Source: Candidatus Aenigmatarchaeota archaeon
GTDB lineage: Archaea; Aenigmatarchaeota; Aenigmatarchaeia; GW2011-AR5; JAGGXF01
NCBI GenBank assembly: GCA_029932645.1
Contig: JAOZPR010000008.1
Span: forward strand, 10,827-27,848
DNA length: 17,022 nucleotides
Reading direction: 5' to 3'
Below are positions 2 through 13,126 of the stretch, one piece after another; positions within the stretch are counted from its first letter, which is position 1; each line of letters starts with the position of its first letter. The notes beneath the pieces were generated by a model that saw only the letters and a list, made by a program, of their open reading frames with translations, was not told the origin of the DNA and did no database searches. A program made the position numbers and the translations under genes.

Positions 2-103
2 TGGGCCCACCCAGATTTGAACTGGGGTCTGAAGCTCCCAAAGCTCCGATGTTTGCCGTCCGGCGCTTCGCGCCAAACCCTAACCAAGCTACACCATGAG
101 CCC
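2..103 (-). tRNA. tRNA-Pro(TGG) with a 28-nt non-canonical intron at the D-loop/D-stem junction (about 52/53..79/80)
   Basis: The reverse complement folds as acceptor GGGCTCA/TGGGCCC-A, D-arm GTGT-AGCTTGGTTA-[insert]-(A/G)CAT, anticodon arm GGAGC-TTTGGGA-GCTTC (TGG) and T-arm CCCAG-TTCAAAT-CTGGG. Removing 28 nt restores a standard cloverleaf. CCA is not encoded. Confidence 0.93.
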
Positions 104-129
104 ATTGCTACGTAAGATTTATAGCGCTA

Positions 130-150
130 AAAGACTTTTAAAACTTTTTA
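130..150. promoter_or_regulatory. Putative bidirectional TATA box (TTTTAAAA, 136-143) for tRNA-Pro (-) and the methyltransferase (+)
   Basis: Palindromic TTTTAAAA has A-rich BRE-like flanks on both strands. It lies about 22 nt before ATG 165 and about 32 nt from the tRNA 5' end. Confidence 0.5.
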
Positions 151-164
151 AGCCAACTCTAATC

Positions 165-974
165 ATGAACCTCAAACAGGCGCTGGAAAAAAAAGGTATC
201 AAAGGCGCTCCAAAGAGCTTTGACCAAGTCGGCTGTATAGCCATAATAGAGATACCAGAGGAGCTCAAAAGGCACGAGAAAGTCATCGGCAATACTTTTT
301 TAGAGCTGCATAAGAACATAAAAACCGTGTTCAAGAAGGCGTCGCCGCGTTCTGGTCAGTATCGCCTGAGAAAACTTAAGCTCATCGCCGGTGCCAATAA
401 ATCAATAACAGAGCATAAAGAATCCGGCTGTCGGTTTTTGGTAAACGTAAGGACATGCTACTTTTCGCCGAGAGAAGGAACAGAACGTATGCGCATCGCT
501 GAAAAGGTAAGGAAAGGCGAGCGTGTTATGATCTTCTTCGCAGGCATGGGACCGTCTCCGATAATAATCAGTAAGAAGACAAAGGCTTCGGATGTTATCG
601 GCATAGAAATTAATCCGGCCTGCGTTAGATATTTTCGGCGCAATATTGCGCTGAACAAGACTCATAATATTAAAGTCATTCAAGGCGACGTTAAAAAAGA
701 GGCCAAGAAATATTATGGTTCATGCGACCGCGTTGCGATGCCTCTGCCTGAAACAGGATACAAATATCTCAGCCACGCAATAAGATGCCTCAAGCCAAAA
801 GGCATCGTCCATTTCTATTTTATTTCCCATGAAAATGAAATTAATAAATGGAAGAAGATTGTGCGCAGAGAAGCGTCAAAACTGAAAAAAAAAGCGAAAA
901 TAAAAGAGAAAAAAAAGATTCTGCCTTATGGTCCCGGCATTTATAAGTGGCGCATTGATTTTACTGTTTTTTGA
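165..974 (+). CDS. Trm5/Met-10+ family class I SAM-dependent tRNA methyltransferase, Trm5a/Taw21-like, lacking the D1 domain
   Basis: Motifs HKESGCRF-V-V---YFSPR---ER, GERVMIFFAG-GP, IEINP, GDV and DRVAMPLP (P-x-P in place of NLP). Start moved from 96 to ATG 165 because 96 lies inside the tRNA. Confidence 0.85.
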   Translation: MNLKQALEKKGIKGAPKSFDQVGCIAIIEIPEELKRHEKVIGNTFLELHKNIKTVFKKASPRSGQYRLRKLKLIAGANKSITEHKESGCRFLVNVRTCYFSPREGTERMRIAEKVRKGERVMIFFAGMGPSPIIISKKTKASDVIGIEINPACVRYFRRNIALNKTHNIKVIQGDVKKEAKKYYGSCDRVAMPLPETGYKYLSHAIRCLKPKGIVHFYFISHENEINKWKKIVRREASKLKKKAKIKEKKKILPYGPGIYKWRIDFTVF

Positions 975-1782
975 ATTTTGCATCAATAACAATATGATAT
1001 GTTCTAGGTGCGGTGCTTTTGACCTTCTTTTTTGTTATGATTCTGGTAAGAACAAATCCGTTTGCTTCGGCGCGTTTCCTTAGCTGTTCCAGCGGTTTTT
1101 CCCATAGCTCGCTCTGCTTGTAAACATTATGATAATGGATAATTCCCTTCTTCTTTAACAGCGAGAACGCTTTTGGTAGGAAGCGCTCTGTGCCAGGAAA
1201 ATAACCCATTATTATTCGGTCGGCCTTTTCTGGCAGCGTGGCAAAGCGGCAGTCGGCCATCATTGGCTTAATGTTTTTTATTTTATTTAAGGAAATGTTT
1301 TCTTTCAAGAATTTGAATGATGTTGGGTTTTTCTCTATGGCGTATATTTCTTTCGCTTTGCTGTTCTTGGCAATGCCTATCGAAAAATAGCCGATGCCCG
1401 CAAACATGTCTATGATTGTTTCGTTTGGCTTTATTTGGTTTATGAGCCGGCGACGCTCAGAGAGGTTGCCCTTGGAGAACATAATCTTTGCTACGTCTAT
1501 GCGATAGAGACAGCCATGCTCTTTGTGTGTTGTGGTGGTATTTTTATCCCCGGCTATAACTTCTGCTCGCGGTCTTCTATATTCTCCAGCAATGCCTTTT
1601 ATCATGCAAACCGTTCTTATGTATGGAAGCATCTCCAAAACCGCTTCGCCTATTTTCTTATGCTGCCCTGCTGTAGAGCCAAAGAGCTTGATTAATATTA
1701 TATCGCCGACCTTCTGGTAACTCGAAGGCAGTGCTTTCAGCGGCAGGCCTGTTTTCTCAGCGAGTTTTTGCTTAAAGGGCAT
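961..1782 (-). CDS. taw2: tRNA(Phe) 4-demethylwyosine aminocarboxypropyltransferase (TYW2/Taw2)
   Basis: Taw2-type signatures HKEHGCLYRIDVAKIMFSKGN--ER, DMFAGIGYF, IEKNP, ADRIIMGY and IIHYH. It is adjacent to taw1. Confidence 0.85.
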   Translation of the reverse strand: MPFKQKLAEKTGLPLKALPSSYQKVGDIILIKLFGSTAGQHKKIGEAVLEMLPYIRTVCMIKGIAGEYRRPRAEVIAGDKNTTTTHKEHGCLYRIDVAKIMFSKGNLSERRRLINQIKPNETIIDMFAGIGYFSIGIAKNSKAKEIYAIEKNPTSFKFLKENISLNKIKNIKPMMADCRFATLPEKADRIIMGYFPGTERFLPKAFSLLKKKGIIHYHNVYKQSELWEKPLEQLRKRAEANGFVLTRIITKKKVKSTAPRTYHIVIDAKFKKQ

Positions 1783-1815
1783 ATTTAAAATCTTTTTTCA
1801 AAAGATTTAACTATT
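1783..1815. promoter_or_regulatory. 33-bp divergent promoter region between taw2 and taw1 containing a 9-bp inverted repeat
   Basis: AAATCTTTT(1788-1796)-TTC-AAAAGATTT(1800-1808). TATA-like TTTAAAA at 1784-1790 (+) and TTAAAT at 1810-1805 (-) each lie about 23-25 nt from the ATG they would serve. Confidence 0.55.
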
Positions 1816-2733
1816 ATGATACTGACAAAAGAAGACATTACAAGGCTGGAAAAGGCTGGATACAGGTTTGTAGGCCCGTCAAAGCACTCAGCAGTTAAAA
1901 TATGCAGCTGGACACGCGAGGCTATTCGAGGCAAAAATTTCTGCTACAAGCAGAAGTTCTATGGTATTGCCTCGCACCGCTGCCTCCAGATGACACCAGC
2001 CCTGCCATTTTGTACGCAACGTTGCCAGTTTTGCTGGCGTGACACCACGATAACATACCCAGAATGGACTGGCCCAGTAGACGATCCCAAAGACATACTG
2101 GACGGTGCAATAGAGGCGCAGCGTGAAATCTTGCAGGGATTCAAAGGTAATCCAAACGCAGATATGGAAAAGTTTGAAGAAGCAATGAGCCCAAATCAAG
2201 TCGCCATATCACTAGCAGGCGAGCCCACGTTGTATCCAAAGCTGCCCGAGTTCGTAGACCTCGTGAACAGCAGGGGCATGACATCGTTTCTCGTGACAAA
2301 TGGAACAAATCCTGATATGATTGAGAGGCTCTTGGAACACCAGCCTTATCAGCTATACATAACCCTGGCTGCTCCTGATGAAGCTACCTACAAAAAAACA
2401 TGTTGCCCCATAATCAATGACGGCTGGTCTCGGCTAATGACATCATTATCCATGCTCAACCAGTTCAATCGTTCTGTCATAAGGCTCACGCTTGTCAAGG
2501 GGCTAAACATGACAAGCCCTGAAAAATACGCAGAGCATATAGAGAAAGCCGGGCCAAAATTCGTGGAGGCAAAGGCATACATGGCTGTTGGATATTCGCG
2601 CGAACGCTTGGGTTTGCCATACATGCCGCAGCACTCGGAAATTCGAGAGTTTGCTGAAAAGATAGAACAGAACTCTTCCTACAGAATCAAAGACGAGAAG
2701 ACAGACAGCAGGGTTGTTTTACTGATGAAGTGA
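1816..2733 (+). CDS. taw1: Radical SAM 4-demethylwyosine synthase (TYW1/Taw1)
   Basis: HSAVKICSWT, CYKQKFYGIASHRCLQMTP, the CxxxCxxC motif (CTQRCQFC), AISLAGEP, FLVTNG and EAKAYM-VG-SR. Confidence 0.96.
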   Translation: MILTKEDITRLEKAGYRFVGPSKHSAVKICSWTREAIRGKNFCYKQKFYGIASHRCLQMTPALPFCTQRCQFCWRDTTITYPEWTGPVDDPKDILDGAIEAQREILQGFKGNPNADMEKFEEAMSPNQVAISLAGEPTLYPKLPEFVDLVNSRGMTSFLVTNGTNPDMIERLLEHQPYQLYITLAAPDEATYKKTCCPIINDGWSRLMTSLSMLNQFNRSVIRLTLVKGLNMTSPEKYAEHIEKAGPKFVEAKAYMAVGYSRERLGLPYMPQHSEIREFAEKIEQNSSYRIKDEKTDSRVVLLMK

Positions 2734-2779
2734 ATTTTATCACTTAAAAGTAGTCTATTTAAATTTTGATGTCTAATTA

Positions 2780-3541
2780 ATGGACATGAAAGAAGAGACT
2801 AAGTCAAAGGGGTATGTCTTTTTCGTAGACTATAACTTTCTTCTTGTCGATGGATGGAATGAAATAGCTGTCTTATGGCAGTGGGCTCTAGATAACGTAC
2901 GCAATAAAAAAACAAGAATAGGTAAAATAAACGGCTTTTTTGAAGGAATTTACACAGGTTTAGATGGGTTATACAATACAATAAAGTATTTTAAGAATGA
3001 TGATTTTTCAGATTTCCTAAAATTTTTTAGTAAATATAACGGCGTCAAACCAGACTATGATAAAAAATCAGTTCTTGATAAATTATTACCATTCCCTATA
3101 AAACCCGAGCTAATGCCTAATGTTAGAGAATTTCTTGAGCATGTAAATAAGGTAGGAAAAGTGAATATTTTATCGAATGGTATAAAAGAATTTTTTGAAC
3201 CTTATTTAGAGGAGAAGGGTATTAAACACATGTTTGATAATATATATGCAAATAGCATAAAAGCTGCTAAAGAGGGCAAAATTGAATTAAAAAATGTGGA
3301 AGCTAAGAGAGAGCTCATAAAAGAATTATACCCAAGCCAAGATTTAAGTCGTGTTGTTTACATCGGCGATAAAAGAGATAGAAAAGTTATAGAGTATGTC
3401 GCCAAACATGGTGGCAAGGCTTTCATGCTTTCTAAGAAGGAAGGCGAAGAAATAATATATAAATGGCACAATGACATTGGAGACCATAAGAAAACTTTTT
3501 ACTATATAAAAAGTCTAAAAAATGTTTTTGAGCATCTTTGA
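2780..3541 (+). CDS. HAD-superfamily hydrolase, divergent
   Basis: Motif I FFVDYN (DxN), motif II ILSNG, a Lys motif (AKRELI) and motif IV YIGDKRD. The gene is AT-rich. Confidence 0.6.
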   Translation: MDMKEETKSKGYVFFVDYNFLLVDGWNEIAVLWQWALDNVRNKKTRIGKINGFFEGIYTGLDGLYNTIKYFKNDDFSDFLKFFSKYNGVKPDYDKKSVLDKLLPFPIKPELMPNVREFLEHVNKVGKVNILSNGIKEFFEPYLEEKGIKHMFDNIYANSIKAAKEGKIELKNVEAKRELIKELYPSQDLSRVVYIGDKRDRKVIEYVAKHGGKAFMLSKKEGEEIIYKWHNDIGDHKKTFYYIKSLKNVFEHL

Positions 3542-3551
3542 TACTGAAAAG

Positions 3552-4064
3552 TTATTTTTCAACAGTTTTCTTTCCCCTTTCCTGCGGTACGATTCTTATT
3601 CGTCCGCCAGAGAATTCTTTGTCGAGTTCTTTGCCTTTGAAGTATTCGTGAAGGAAGATAGCCAATGCCGCAACCTCGGAGTGCGGCTGGCTTGTCACGG
3701 CGATGTTATAATCAACAAGCTGATAGATTTCGGAAGGCACCTTTTCGCCGCCTACGACGACAAGAACATCTTTCTTCTGCCCGATTTCTTTTATTTTCTT
3801 CTGCACGGGTAAACCGTACATGGTTAGGTGAACAGAAACACCAGGAAAATTCTTAATAACTTTTTTCCAGTTTTTTTCATAACTGACTTGAAAACTGCCG
3901 CCCCATTCTTTCGTAACTTCTTTTATACTTTCAATGAGCTTTTCATCATGCTCGCCGCTCATTATAACAGAATCAGCGCCGAGCGCACGTGCTGTCAAGC
4001 CAACGTGCGTGCTCAATCGTGCATCTCTTCCGGGGCGATGACCAAGACGAAGAATTGTTATCAT
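3552..4064 (-). CDS. trm56: tRNA (cytidine(56)-2'-O)-methyltransferase, SPOUT family (aTrm56)
   Basis: [36 protein letters not shown] and [13 protein letters not shown]. Confidence 0.96.
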
Positions 4065-6561: not shown

Positions 6562-6574
6562 AAAACAAAAAAAA
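6562..6574 (-). terminator. Oligo-T terminator downstream of tRNA-Gln
   Basis: The minus strand reads TTTTTTTTGTTTT a few nt after the discriminator base. Confidence 0.55.
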
Positions 6575-6579
6575 GGATA

Positions 6580-6730
6580 TAGCCCCGGCAGGAATTTCAG
6601 AACCTTCTTACATAATATATTTTTTCGATTGAAACTTTTTGCCTATAATTCTTTTTTGCAAAAAAGGCTCATTTGAACCTGCGTCCCAGGTTCCAAAGAC
6701 CTGTATCCTTGGCCGCTAGACTACGGGGCT
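6580..6730 (-). tRNA. tRNA-Gln(TTG) with a 78-nt intron at position 59/60 (intron 6594..6671)
   Basis: Acceptor AGCCCCG/CGGGGCT-A (A1-U72, typical of archaeal tRNA-Gln), D-arm GTCT...GGAT, anticodon arm CAGGT-CTTTGGA-ACCTG and T-arm GCAGG-TTCAAA^T-CCTGC. The intron junctions form a strict BHB, and the mature length is 73 nt. Confidence 0.95.
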
Positions 6731-6760: not shown

Positions 6761-6778
6761 TATTTAAATAAATTTTCT
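6761..6778 (-). promoter_or_regulatory. TATA box / BRE of tRNA-Gln
   Basis: The minus strand reads AGAAAATTTA-TTTAAATA about 30 nt upstream of the tRNA 5' end. Confidence 0.5.
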
Positions 6779-6945: not shown

Positions 6946-6960
6946 ACGGAGGTTTTGAAG

Positions 6961-8847
6961 ATGAAGTTATTGTTGATACATTCTGATTTTCTTGAATACG
7001 AACAAAAGGAAAAGGCCATTAAATCAGCAGAAGACGTGCAAAAGGAAAAAAAGCGCGTCGAAGACTGTCTTGTTGTTTTTACATGCGTCGAGCGCTGCGA
7101 TGAAGATAGCCCAGCACAGGCTGTTGCCGGCGCTGTGAAAGAGATACAAGATGTTGCAAACCAAGTTAAAGCCAAAAAGATAGTCATCTATCCGTGGGTT
7201 CATCTTTCTTCCGAACCTGCCTCAGCAGGCGCGTCTTTGAAGGTGTTGAAAGAACTGGAGACCAGCCTTGGCGCAGAATATGAAGTGCATAGAAGCCCAT
7301 TCGGCTGGTATAAGTCTTTCACTATCAGCTGCAAAGGGCATCCTCTGGCAGAATTGAGCAGAAAAATAAAAGCAGGCGAGGCTGGCAAGGAAGAGGTATC
7401 AGAAGCCCTGAAGAAAGAGGAGACGCTCAAGTCAGAATGGTTTATAATTGAGCCGGATGGAAAGATGAATAAAATAAGCATCAAGGATGGAAAAATCATT
7501 GGTTTTGATTTTTCCAAGCACAAAAAGCTGGAAAAGCTCGCAAAGTATGAGATGCAAAAAAGCAGGCTTGTGAAGCAAGAGCCACCACATATAAAACTGA
7601 TGAAGAAATTGGAGCTGGTAGACTACGAGCCGGGCAGCGACCCCGGAAATCTGAGATATTATCCAAAGGGCCGGATGATTAAAGCGCTGATAGAGGACTG
7701 GGTTACACAAAAAGTCTTGGAATACGGTGTCATGGATGTGGAATCGCCGATAATGTACGATTTCGAGCACCCATCACTTAAGAAATATCTGAACCGATTC
7801 CCTGCGCGCCAGTACACTATTCAAACTCCAAATAAAAAAGTATTCCTACGGTTTGCGGCATGCTTTGGCCAGTTTTTGATGGCGCACGATGCGACGATAT
7901 CGTATAGAAACCTGCCGCTGCGCATGTACGAGCTTACGAAATACAGCTTCAGGGTTGAAAAGCGCGGTGAACTTGCGGGCCTGAGAAGGCTTAGAACATT
8001 TACAATGCCCGATTGCCACGCTTTTTGTAAAGACATTGGGCAGGCAAAAGAAGAGATGCTGGTAAGGTTTGACCTAGCAGATGAGATACAAAAAGGATTT
8101 GACTTGGGTCGGGATGATTTTGAATTTGCCGTCCGTGTGGTGAAAAGCTTCTGGAACGAAAACAAAGACTATGTAGTTAACCTAGTGAAAAAGTGGGGCA
8201 AGCCCACCTTGGTAGAAATGTGGGACAAGCAATTCTTTTATTTCGTATTGAAGCATGAATGGAATTTTGTGGACGCGCTAGACAAAGCCTCATGCCTGAC
8301 AACAGACCAGATAGATGTTGAGAACAGTAAAACATACGACTTAAAGTTCACAGACGCGGACAATAAGCAAAAGCATCTGATTATTCTCCACCTTTCGCCG
8401 AGCGGTGCTGTTGAACGGGTTATGTACGCACTGCTCGAGAAGGCATATATGCAACAAAAGCAGGGCAAGAACCCTGTGTTGCCGTTGTGGCTGTCTCCGA
8501 CACAGGTGAGATTGTGTCCAGTCTCTGACAAATTCAATGAGCTGTGCAAGGAGATAGCAGATAAAATAGAAAAGAAGAAAGTTCGTGTCGATATAGACGA
8601 CAGAGTAGAATCCATTCAAAAGAAAATACGCGATGCTGAGCTCGAGTGGGTGCCCTTTATTGTCGTCATAGGAGAGAAAGAGCAGAAGAGCAACAAGCTC
8701 GCTGTGCGATTTAGAGCATCTGGGAAAGTCGAAAACATGAAGCCAGACGACTTAATAAAGCTCATCACCAAAGAGACGAAGGGCAAGCCATACAGGCCGC
8801 TGCCGCTGCCAAGACTTCTAACAAGGCGGCCAGTGTTCTACGGGTGA
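6961..8847 (+). CDS. thrS: Threonyl-tRNA synthetase, archaeal type with N-terminal archaeal editing domain
   Basis: Editing domain MKLLLIHSD, YPWVHL, PFGWYK and CKGHPLAELSR. Catalytic and Zn motifs LRFAACFG, FRVE--GEL-GL-RLR-FTMPDCH and ILHLSPSG-VER, plus an anticodon-binding domain. SD GGAGGT precedes ATG 6961. Confidence 0.98.
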   Translation: MKLLLIHSDFLEYEQKEKAIKSAEDVQKEKKRVEDCLVVFTCVERCDEDSPAQAVAGAVKEIQDVANQVKAKKIVIYPWVHLSSEPASAGASLKVLKELETSLGAEYEVHRSPFGWYKSFTISCKGHPLAELSRKIKAGEAGKEEVSEALKKEETLKSEWFIIEPDGKMNKISIKDGKIIGFDFSKHKKLEKLAKYEMQKSRLVKQEPPHIKLMKKLELVDYEPGSDPGNLRYYPKGRMIKALIEDWVTQKVLEYGVMDVESPIMYDFEHPSLKKYLNRFPARQYTIQTPNKKVFLRFAACFGQFLMAHDATISYRNLPLRMYELTKYSFRVEKRGELAGLRRLRTFTMPDCHAFCKDIGQAKEEMLVRFDLADEIQKGFDLGRDDFEFAVRVVKSFWNENKDYVVNLVKKWGKPTLVEMWDKQFFYFVLKHEWNFVDALDKASCLTTDQIDVENSKTYDLKFTDADNKQKHLIILHLSPSGAVERVMYALLEKAYMQQKQGKNPVLPLWLSPTQVRLCPVSDKFNELCKEIADKIEKKKVRVDIDDRVESIQKKIRDAELEWVPFIVVIGEKEQKSNKLAVRFRASGKVENMKPDDLIKLITKETKGKPYRPLPLPRLLTRRPVFYG

Positions 8848-12322: not shown

Positions 12323-12694
12323 ATGAGCGTCAAAAAAGAACTGAAGATAAAATTTGTGCCCTACGAGATTTTGAAAAAGAAGAAGACCAAAGATATAGTA
12401 AGCGACTTGGAAAAGAACACAATAATACTCGTTGATGCAAAACTCTTGCCGACTGAAGAAACCAAGCTCATAAGGGCGACGATGAAAAAGGTTTCATCAA
12501 AGTTTAGCGGCATTGAGCTGAACTCCCTTGATTTGTCAGAGATGAAAAAGAACAAGACATGGTCAGAGATAGTCAAAGAGAAGGCCATGGAGATAATCTT
12601 GGGAAAGAAGAGAGGAATAACCATTATAGGTCCTGCTGACATAATCAAAAAGATAGAAAAAGACCCATCGGATCTTTTGCTGTTCATGAAATGA
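12323..12694 (+). CDS. oapB: OapB/ArvB (DUF2073-like) protein
   Basis: L-P-EE-KLI--TM------FSGIE and GITIIGPA--IK-I-KDP. It starts directly after the oapA stop codon. Confidence 0.85.
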   Translation: MSVKKELKIKFVPYEILKKKKTKDIVSDLEKNTIILVDAKLLPTEETKLIRATMKKVSSKFSGIELNSLDLSEMKKNKTWSEIVKEKAMEIILGKKRGITIIGPADIIKKIEKDPSDLLLFMK

Positions 12695-12736
12695 TTATTT
12701 TAATTACGATTTTTGTATTGTTTTTCTGGTGATAAG

Positions 12737-13126
12737 ATGCCTAACAGGTGTACCAGGTGCGGAAAGATTTATCCAGACAGCGCCGACTTGAGCAATGGCT
12801 GTAGCGAGTGCGGTGGCAAGTTCTTTATACACGTCAAAGAAGAGCAACTGGAGAAAACAGAGGAGTTCATAAAACTCACAGAAAAGCAGGTTGATGAAAT
12901 AGAAAGAGACGTCCGTGACATTATCGGTGAGGAAAAAATTAAGCCAGAAGAGTCTGTTGTTCTGGACTTGGAGGCCATACGTGTGATAAAGCCGGGAAAA
13001 TACGAGATAGACCTAACGAACCTGTTCACTCAGCGCCCGATTGTTATCAGGCTCGCGCCAGGGAAATATGAAATCGATTTGACGAGCATACCAAAACGTT
13101 CTGCGAAAAAAGAAGATGAGGAGTAA
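12737..13126 (+). CDS. oapC: OapC/ArvC Zn-ribbon protein (DUF2072-like)
   Basis: MPNRCTRCG...GCSECGGKFF and C-terminal IRVIKPGKYEIDL. SD GGTGA precedes ATG 12737. Confidence 0.88.
   Translation: MPNRCTRCGKIYPDSADLSNGCSECGGKFFIHVKEEQLEKTEEFIKLTEKQVDEIERDVRDIIGEEKIKPEESVVLDLEAIRVIKPGKYEIDLTNLFTQRPIVIRLAPGKYEIDLTSIPKRSAKKEDEE

Follow-up and report, generated by a model that had tools for sequence, protein, structure and literature searches.

A T-loop intron in an archaeal tRNA-Gln(UUG) gene, predicted to be spliced and probably filled by a degenerate three-tract repeat

Introduction

Position 59/60, in the T-loop, is reportedly among the intron positions catalogued by Marck and Grosjean in 2003, and Randau and Soll are said to have proposed in 2008 an anti-integration role for tRNA introns. 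The closest described counterparts of the intron reported here come from the Thermoproteales, in which intron "transposition" among tRNAs has been documented (Sugahara 2008 and Fujishima 2010, as related in PMC4033280 and PMC4090602). According to the portions of those two articles that we draw on, bulge-helix-bulge (BHB) introns in the Thermoproteales occur outside position 37/38, can be several to a gene and may be near-identical across tRNA specificities, and the genome studied here resembles them in each of these respects. It differs in belonging to a DPANN lineage, in encoding a single alpha-type splicing endonuclease (EndA) instead of a heterotetramer, and in having introns built on a three-tract repeat that is found outside tRNA genes too. 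T-loop BHB introns and the copying of introns between tRNA genes are already described for the Thermoproteales, and the tRNA-Gln(UUG) gene adds one case.

Two other bodies of work provide points of comparison. Among DPANN archaea, extracts of Kaneta et al. 2018 (PMC5829648) link an alpha4-type EndA that carries an insert, L3, to more disrupted tRNA genes. In bacteria, the BoxC, PIT and TMECO intrastrand triplex repeats are linked to genome instability and are described as having no known function in the corresponding sections of Holder et al. 2015 (PMC4666352). In a further published study, most tRNA genes were interrupted, standard callers missed the introns and the sites were BHB-competent, all of which is also true here; that study reported no general route of arrival, copying between tRNAs included, whereas such copying is plain in the present genome.

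The gene in question lies in a 17,022-nt stretch of a contig, referred to as the window, from a Candidatus Aenigmatarchaeota archaeon. The genome of this DPANN archaeon (G000) is a 0.72-Mb assembly of 43 contigs and is 89% complete. An earlier note, made from the sequence of the window alone, had described a tRNA-Gln with a long intron at 59/60 in a textbook BHB, had remarked that both tRNAs of the window carry non-canonical introns, and had offered views on T-loop modification and on protection from integrating elements. Here, we report a computational analysis of this locus, of its counterparts in related genomes and of the repeat from which its intron appears to derive.

Results

The tRNA-Gln(UUG) gene

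The coordinates of the gene, its splicing motif and neighboring features are collected in Table 1. Joining the exons by script, position 6672 to position 6593, yields a sequence that ARAGORN calls as tRNA-Gln(ttg) with a regular, full cloverleaf, including a UUG anticodon in a 7-nt loop on a 5-bp stem; the gene identity and the 59/60 position given in the earlier note are thereby borne out. The 5' exon comprises the acceptor strand, the D-arm, the UUG anticodon arm, a 4-nt variable region, the T-stem strand GCAGG and TTCAAA, and the 3' exon reads T followed by CCTGC, CGGGGCT and A. Because the D-loop has one additional base and the variable region one base fewer, linear position 59 is also standard position 59. 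At 73 nt without CCA, the mature tRNA is shorter than its 78-nt intron, just as the earlier note had observed. The A1-U72 pair and A73, which matter for the GatDE route, are present (AGCCCCG...CGGGGCT, then A), and the same ends are found in 12 of 13 tRNA-Gln genes of relatives for which both the 5' and 3' ends are in view. The single exception, in G041 (L010), has C instead of A before GCCCCG. Upstream of the gene, the TATA-like box is likely its promoter, and the T8 run downstream is likely its terminator.

Table 1. Features of the window considered in this study (positions are those of the window)
Feature	Position	Strand	Details
tRNA-Gln(UUG) gene including intron	6580..6730	minus	A1 at 6730, discriminator A73 at 6580; CCA not encoded; ARAGORN tRNA-Gln(ttg) once spliced
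5' exon, tRNA positions 1-59, 59 nt	6672..6730	minus	Spliced cloverleaf
Intron at 59/60, 78 nt	6594..6671	minus	BHB scan: central helix 4 bp, exon helix 5 bp, intron helix at least 6 bp; strict
3' exon, positions 60-73, 14 nt	6580..6593	minus	Spliced cloverleaf
BHB 5' strand	6674..6682	minus	T-stem GCAGG 6682-6678 and central TTCA 6677-6674, then bulge AA/T 6673-6671
BHB 3' strand	6588..6599	minus	Central TGAA 6599-6596, bulge AT/T 6595-6593, T-stem CCTGC 6592-6588
Intron closing helix, 5' strand GAGCCTTT	6663..6670	minus	Pairs with 6600-6607
Intron closing helix, 3' strand GAAGGTTC	6600..6607	minus	Pairs with 6663-6670
Pyrimidine tract Y (T6)	6660..6665	minus	Module alignment
Purine tract R (A6)	6652..6657	minus	Hairpin with Y across loop GC; RNAfold, module alignment
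16-nt stretch	6635..6650	minus	Absent from G002 relatives; looks like a local duplication of the R end; alignment
Third tract R' (A6)	6620..6625	minus	After spacer TTTCAATCG common to G002 introns; alignment
TATA-like box TTTAAATA	6761..6768	minus	31-38 nt upstream of tRNA position 1; read off sequence
T8 run	6567..6574	minus	Starts 6 nt after discriminator base; read off sequence
tRNA-Pro(UGG)	2..104	minus	26-31 nt D-loop insertion; BHB relaxed, borders ambiguous
aTrm56 (Cm56 methyltransferase)	3552..4064	minus	PF01994, E 1.5e-47

The interrupted gene escapes routine detection. ARAGORN without its intron mode finds no tRNA anywhere in the window, and Rfam at its gathering score likewise reports no tRNA there, missing the tRNA-Gln gene; at a loose threshold, Rfam recovers just the 5' part of the gene (6663-6723, 20 bits). 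The earlier note had named, as the case that would count against its reading, the lack of a spliced product together with an uninterrupted tRNA-Gln(TTG) elsewhere that supplies the function. A sequence search with the pre-tRNA, together with ARAGORN, found no second tRNA-Gln(UUG) in the 89% complete assembly; beyond its own locus, the pre-tRNA matched nothing but the Gln(CUG) gene and a single stretch of 24 nt. Given that completeness, an uninterrupted copy could still lie on the missing DNA.

The splicing motif

The textbook BHB of the earlier note was recovered, with the exon, central and intron helices and both bulges at the minus-strand places it gave. Our scan classes the motif as strict hBHBh', with four central, five exon (T-stem) and eight intron pairs. 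Along its 5' side, the five T-stem pairs are followed by TTCA, which corresponds to tRNA positions 54-57, then by a bulge made up of A58, A59 and the first intron base, T, and then by the intron helix. Its 3' side runs from the intron helix through TGAA to a bulge formed by intron bases A and T and exon base T60, and from there into the T-stem. This is the geometry of a canonical anticodon-loop intron relocated to the T-arm, and it has what defines archaeal BHB introns: 3-nt bulges on opposite strands separated by 4 bp, and flanking helices of at least 2 bp.

BHB-like geometry is in itself common in this AT-rich genome of 41% G+C, where 188,873 candidates reach a minimum of 2 bp in both flanking helices, a number that falls to 4,325 when the minimum is 4 bp. 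However, ARAGORN restored a tRNA across the joint for just 12 of the 188,873, and tRNA-Gln(UUG) is one of the 12. In the RNAfold prediction (z = -3.2), T-stem and intron helix are both paired, with a symmetric 7x7 internal loop between them at the place of the 4-bp helix and the bulges; in the minimum-energy structure the 4-bp central helix is absent, and the D and anticodon arms are misfolded. Support for the central helix comes from covariation of the intron base that lies opposite T-loop position 57 in related introns. Among 21 T-loop introns, counted by hand and restricted to those followed by an acceptor strand (the introns on contigs C33 and C9 included), A57 is opposite T in 11, G57 is opposite C in six, and four are mismatched. 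Moreover, near-identical introns of G000 differ at exactly this pair, CGAA accompanying TTCG loops and TGAA accompanying TTCA loops. Excision of the 78-nt intron at the two bulges is a prediction from the motif, and splicing itself is inferred.

Archaeal polymerase terminates at oligo-T, and the T6 run inside the intron could end some transcripts early. In most members of the repeat family described below, the pyrimidine tract is broken by a C, and premature termination may be avoided in this way.

Interrupted tRNA genes in the genome

Across the whole genome, ARAGORN without intron mode makes two calls, neither of them Gln and both misreadings of interrupted genes. Combining intron-mode ARAGORN, partial Rfam matches and BHB scans, we find at least 34 tRNA loci, nearly all interrupted. 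With none found by default in the window and two in the genome, default tRNA finders overlook almost all tRNAs of such genomes.

The earlier note had suggested a genome-wide catalogue of intron positions and a search for similar introns in other tRNAs. For the former we combined a BHB scan with ARAGORN after one, two or three removals. The strict 59/60 introns were resolved in this way; the catalogue is not complete, because many relaxed junctions gave ambiguous or conflicting calls. The search for similar introns succeeded, and near-identical or related 59/60 introns were found. Seven tRNAs carry strict 59/60 introns, namely Gln(UUG), Gln(CUG), Gly(CCC), Gly(UCC), Arg(CCU), Asp(GUC) and Ser(GGA), and two further introns at 59/60, both relaxed, are present on contig C27. 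Some of these genes are interrupted more than once: tRNA-Gly(UCC) (G000:C33:280-720, L055) has three introns, in the D-loop, the anticodon loop and the T-loop, and tRNA-Ser(GGA) (G000:C9:26300-26700) has a 12-nt intron at 37/38 in addition to a 102-nt intron at 59/60, the latter with an extra hairpin inserted in the hairpin loop.

As the earlier note had it, the second tRNA of the window also has a non-canonical intron; this is tRNA-Pro(UGG), with its D-loop insertion. A paralogue of the tRNA-Pro gene (G000:C5:10633-10725, minus strand) lies about 100 nt before the start of the window, past a run of N. Its anticodon loop, TTAGGGA, gives the anticodon AGG, which would be unusual for an archaeon, and it has an insertion in the same D-loop region.

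The nearby aTrm56 gene mentioned in the earlier note is indeed present, and it belongs to a cluster of tRNA-modification genes at 96-4064. The cluster also includes two TRM5/TYW2-type methyltransferases (96-974, plus strand, and 961-1782, minus strand) and a radical-SAM enzyme of wyosine formation (1816-2733). Elsewhere in the window, a threonyl-tRNA synthetase is encoded at 6955-8847, and adjoining genes for the origin-associated proteins OapB and OapC at 12323-13126 may mark a nearby replication origin.

Splicing enzymes

The genome contains one match to the tRNA-intron endonuclease family PF01974, a 207-aa ORF on contig C27 (L021:1177-1800) that encodes an alpha-type EndA. Its best solved relative is the EndA of M. 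jannaschii (1a79, a homotetramer subunit; E 4.9e-33), followed by the catalytic subunit of N. equitans. Compared with the M. jannaschii enzyme, it has an extra lysine-rich insert of six residues in the C-terminal half, aligned with the insert of the N. equitans alpha subunit (3iey_A). RtcB is encoded as well (E 1e-173). A single alpha-type subunit, a best match in M. jannaschii, an insert and heavily interrupted tRNAs are features shared with the DPANN EndA enzymes in the extracts of Kaneta et al. 2018 (PMC5829648), and on our reading of the alignment the lysine-rich insert would correspond to the L3 of that study. Since its BHB is strict, the tRNA-Gln(UUG) intron requires no broad EndA specificity.

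The same site in relatives

In G001, a genome of the same genus, the tRNA-Gln(UUG) gene has an intron of only 20 nt at the same site, with a strict BHB and the same core. Across the part that is retained, it matches the window intron at 36 of 37 positions, and 58 nt of the interior are gone. The anticodon stems of the two genes show compensatory changes, CAGGT/ACCTG in G000 against TGGGT/ACCCA in G001. The tRNA-Gln(UUG) gene of G002, from a sister genus, has a D-loop intron and a 53-nt intron at 59/60, and the site is thus occupied in all three genomes of the family. Outside the family the picture is mixed: G007, from another family, has a 49-nt intron at 59/60 and its congener G013 has none there; the gene is uninterrupted in G044, G026 and G056, and G048 has just a D-loop intron. 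For tRNA-Gln(CUG), 59/60 introns occur in G000, G001, G041, G003 and G012, and the gene is uninterrupted in G004, G019 and G009. This pattern indicates that the 59/60 site is old within the family and has been gained or lost across the order.

The loss of interior sequence in G001 is not confined to tRNA-Gln(UUG), as parts of the module described below are also missing from its T-loop introns in Gln(CUG), Ala(CGC) and Arg(GCG). Given these losses, we read the interior of the intron as dispensable for splicing and as eroding, and because G001 retains the BHB core in an intron of just 20 nt, the interior is likely a passenger.

Contigs were compared from four DNA sequencing runs. Run X1 contains a contig identical to the window locus and may be the source sample. 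Run X2 yields the long, 78-nt form and also a contig of about 90% identity that skips 6607-6667 and corresponds to the 20-nt form, probably from a G001-like organism; the 78-nt and 20-nt lineages thus appear to share one sample. In run X3, the runs at 6660 and 6620 are each one base shorter at a depth of 3.5, and may be errors. At the orthologous site, there is a natural series, in which the module is intact at 53 nt, degenerate at 78 nt and absent at 20 nt.

Copying between tRNA genes

Introns at 59/60 in G000 fall into forms shared by different tRNAs. An 84-nt form is found in Gln(CUG), Arg(CCU) and Gly(CCC), with mutual identity of 96-98%, and a 91-nt form in Asp(GUC) and Gly(UCC) is 100% identical between the two. 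Between the 84-nt and 91-nt forms, BLAST aligns just a common core of 31 nt (97-100%). Related to these forms but diverged, the window intron is identical in 68 of 83 aligned columns. Taken with its T-arm and compared with G002, it matches the T-loop introns of Arg(CCU) at 64 of 70 positions, Arg(GCG) at 66 of 77 and Gln(UUG) at 55 of 68, and the two Arg introns are nearer to it than the orthologous Gln(UUG) intron is. Because its nearest relatives are Arg introns of a sister genus, the intron was likely copied or exchanged between tRNA genes by way of similar T-arms. In G002 Arg(GCG), related sequence occurs in both the anticodon-side intron and the T-loop intron.

A three-tract repeat in introns and between genes

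When the Gln(CUG) intron was compared by BLAST with 70 genomes of the order, 33 matched, mostly through a 45-nt core. Some of the matches fall within D-loop and T-loop introns; others are found immediately after a tRNA, in apparent other structured RNAs and between protein genes. Alignment of 31 copies reveals a module that begins with a pyrimidine tract (typically CCC T4 C T3), followed by a loop of 2-5 nt, the complement of the tract (A3 G A4 GG), a spacer of 8-16 nt and, last, another run of purines (A4 G A3). This third tract mirrors the second and does not repeat it, and it changes together with the first. In 1.02 Mb of DNA, the asymmetric cases comprised 28 exact mirrors and no direct repeats, alongside 10 symmetric and 23 other cases, nine of the 23 preserving the run before the G; the asymmetric tract forms include 5-3, 3-5, 3-2, 2-3, 5-4, 5-2 and 4-2. 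Extended to 371 genomes that sample the phylum, the mirror pattern gave 225 matches in 79 genomes and none in the backward-read control. The direct pattern gave 13 matches in 11 genomes and one in its backward-read control (G074), and at least five of the 13 contain the mirror tract first.

Copies of the module are positioned closely with respect to genes. Out of 58 distinct copies, 15 are located within 19 nt after the stop codon of a co-oriented ORF; for 13 others, an ORF on the opposite strand starts no more than 21 nt away, and it is always the pyrimidine side of the copy that faces this gene; three are ambiguous, and the remainder are in introns or farther from ORFs. In every intron copy with a readable host tRNA the module is in the sense orientation, with a possible exception in the degenerate L060 copy. 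At nine loci (L063, L072, L074, L075, L088, L091, L092, L094 and L095), an ORF on the opposite strand has its start codon 5-10 nt away from the module, and the purine arm, ending AAGGG, would fall at ribosome-binding-site distance in the leader of that gene. At L088, L096, L098 and L099, all of genus g16, the upstream stop codon is within the constant left edge of the element (..TAAGAC followed by T4CT3), as if the element of this subfamily supplied the stop codon. Two further copies, at L067 (G037, about 1508-1550) and L082 (G024, about 1502-1541), are flanked by the conserved, structured-looking sequences CAGGTGCCCCTCGC...GGTGTTCGGGA common to both genomes, and might represent introns of rRNA or of another large structured RNA.

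We considered the module as a plain bidirectional terminator or promoter and left this aside, as copies adjoin stops in one direction and starts in the other, the mirror rule is explained by neither function, and the typical TATA boxes of the genome differ. By its layout the module is a triplex-type repeat, in which a triple helix is putative. Its antisense strand may resemble the U-rich/A-rich RNA triple helices of eukaryotic long non-coding RNAs. Like the BoxC, PIT and TMECO repeats, as presented in the relevant sections of Holder et al. 2015 (PMC4666352), the archaeal module places a pyrimidine tract, a loop, its purine complement, a second loop and a mirror purine tract on one strand, and exists as many dispersed intergenic copies. 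Unlike those repeats, it is A/T-rich and not G/C-rich, and it occurs inside tRNA introns and hard against stop and start codons. It also departs from the ITxF rule given there, which allows loops of 1-6 nt: the first archaeal loop, at 2-5 nt, is within this range, and the second, at 8-16 nt or more, is outside it. In the literature searched, we found no description of the archaeal three-tract repeat, the bacterial study of Holder et al. 2015 being the sole related work.

The copy in the window intron

Reading through the window intron, the closing helix is followed by T6, the GC loop, A6, 26 nt, a second A6 and a tail, TATATTATG..., that is common to G002 introns. The 26 nt between the A6 tracts consist of the 16-nt stretch and the shared spacer, and exceed the 1-6 nt loop rule. 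In the orthologous intron of G002 the tracts are T4CT3, A3GA4 and A4GA3, and the window copy lacks the C, the G and the G together. As its T6, A6 and A6 are all homopolymers, mirror and direct arrangements are indistinguishable in this copy; its layout, shared spacer and overall alignment suggest that it belongs to the module family.

We also considered whether the intron holds a box C/D guide RNA, and rejected this candidate: no Rfam C/D family matched at E up to 10, the motif RUGAUGA is absent, and the sole CUGA in the intron belongs to a BHB strand.

Discussion

Taken together, the comparisons above make us confident that the locus is a functional tRNA-Gln(UUG) gene with a 59/60 intron that EndA and RtcB would splice, and that the interior of this intron is probably a degenerate three-tract repeat, likely copied between tRNAs. 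The single alpha-type EndA would cut at the two 3-nt bulges of the strict motif, RtcB would join the exons, and the T-loop would form, and become modifiable, solely after splicing. Because U54-A57 are paired and the precursor is without a 7-nt T-loop, it is plausible that T-loop modification, including Cm56 by aTrm56, waits for splicing. The degenerate copy of the repeat would be carried as a passenger, and the likeness of their T-arms would have allowed tRNA genes to copy or exchange the intron.

A bolder proposal, which we put forward tentatively and would not ourselves favor, is that the intron is the decayed copy of a self-spreading, triplex-prone DNA repeat that acts as the carrier bringing in tRNA introns and moving them around. 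A repeat landing beside sequence able to close a BHB would be made harmless by the EndA of the host, would persist as an intron and would then erode.

Alternatively, the interior might work as a released RNA, whether as a guide RNA, as a stable circular intron RNA or through a fold that aids the precursor. The three-tract module is conserved class-wide, and the stems around the third tract co-vary when read by eye, both of which speak for such an RNA. However, G001 does without 58 nt here, three of its other T-loop introns have lost parts of the module, and the module is also found in non-intron DNA, in both orientations relative to neighboring genes. In addition, neither the window intron nor six paralogous introns match any Rfam family even at a loose threshold, and inspection by eye finds no C-box-like RUGAUGA in the intron. 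A function of this kind is in our view improbable.

Still less probable is that the intron is kept as a safeguard against integrating elements, in that it interrupts the 3' segment that serves integrases as attB, a role that the earlier note had found the intron to fit and that has been published as a hypothesis about split and interrupted tRNA genes (PMC4033280). The T-arm and 3' acceptor segment are indeed divided by the intron, but nothing we found supports the claim: none of the 20 window ORFs scanned belongs to an integrase family, and no partial copy of tRNA-Gln suggestive of an att site was found in the genome. Relatives of the same order manage with uninterrupted tRNA-Gln genes, for UUG in three genomes and for CUG in three others. 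Furthermore, the intron family spreads by itself and is found outside tRNA genes too; since it is copied between tRNA genes and sits outside them, its presence requires no benefit to the host.

That the gene is a dead, disrupted copy, with Gln decoding left to tRNA-Gln(CUG) or to a gene missing from an assembly that is 89% complete, is very improbable, as all stems are intact with compensatory anticodon-stem changes between G000 and G001, a perfect BHB has been retained in the three genomes of the family, the gene is flanked by a TATA-like box and a T8 run, and nearly all other tRNA genes are interrupted, including Gln(CUG) at the same site.

Our preferred reading remains a gene predicted to be spliced, whose intron interior is probably a decayed repeat. 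If the repeat is such a carrier, it would explain in concrete terms how archaea acquire their tRNA introns. The natural series at the orthologous site and the clear copying of T-loop introns between tRNAs, together with their tie to a repeat also present outside tRNA genes, allow the origin and spread of archaeal tRNA introns to be tested with comparative genomics and simple biochemistry.
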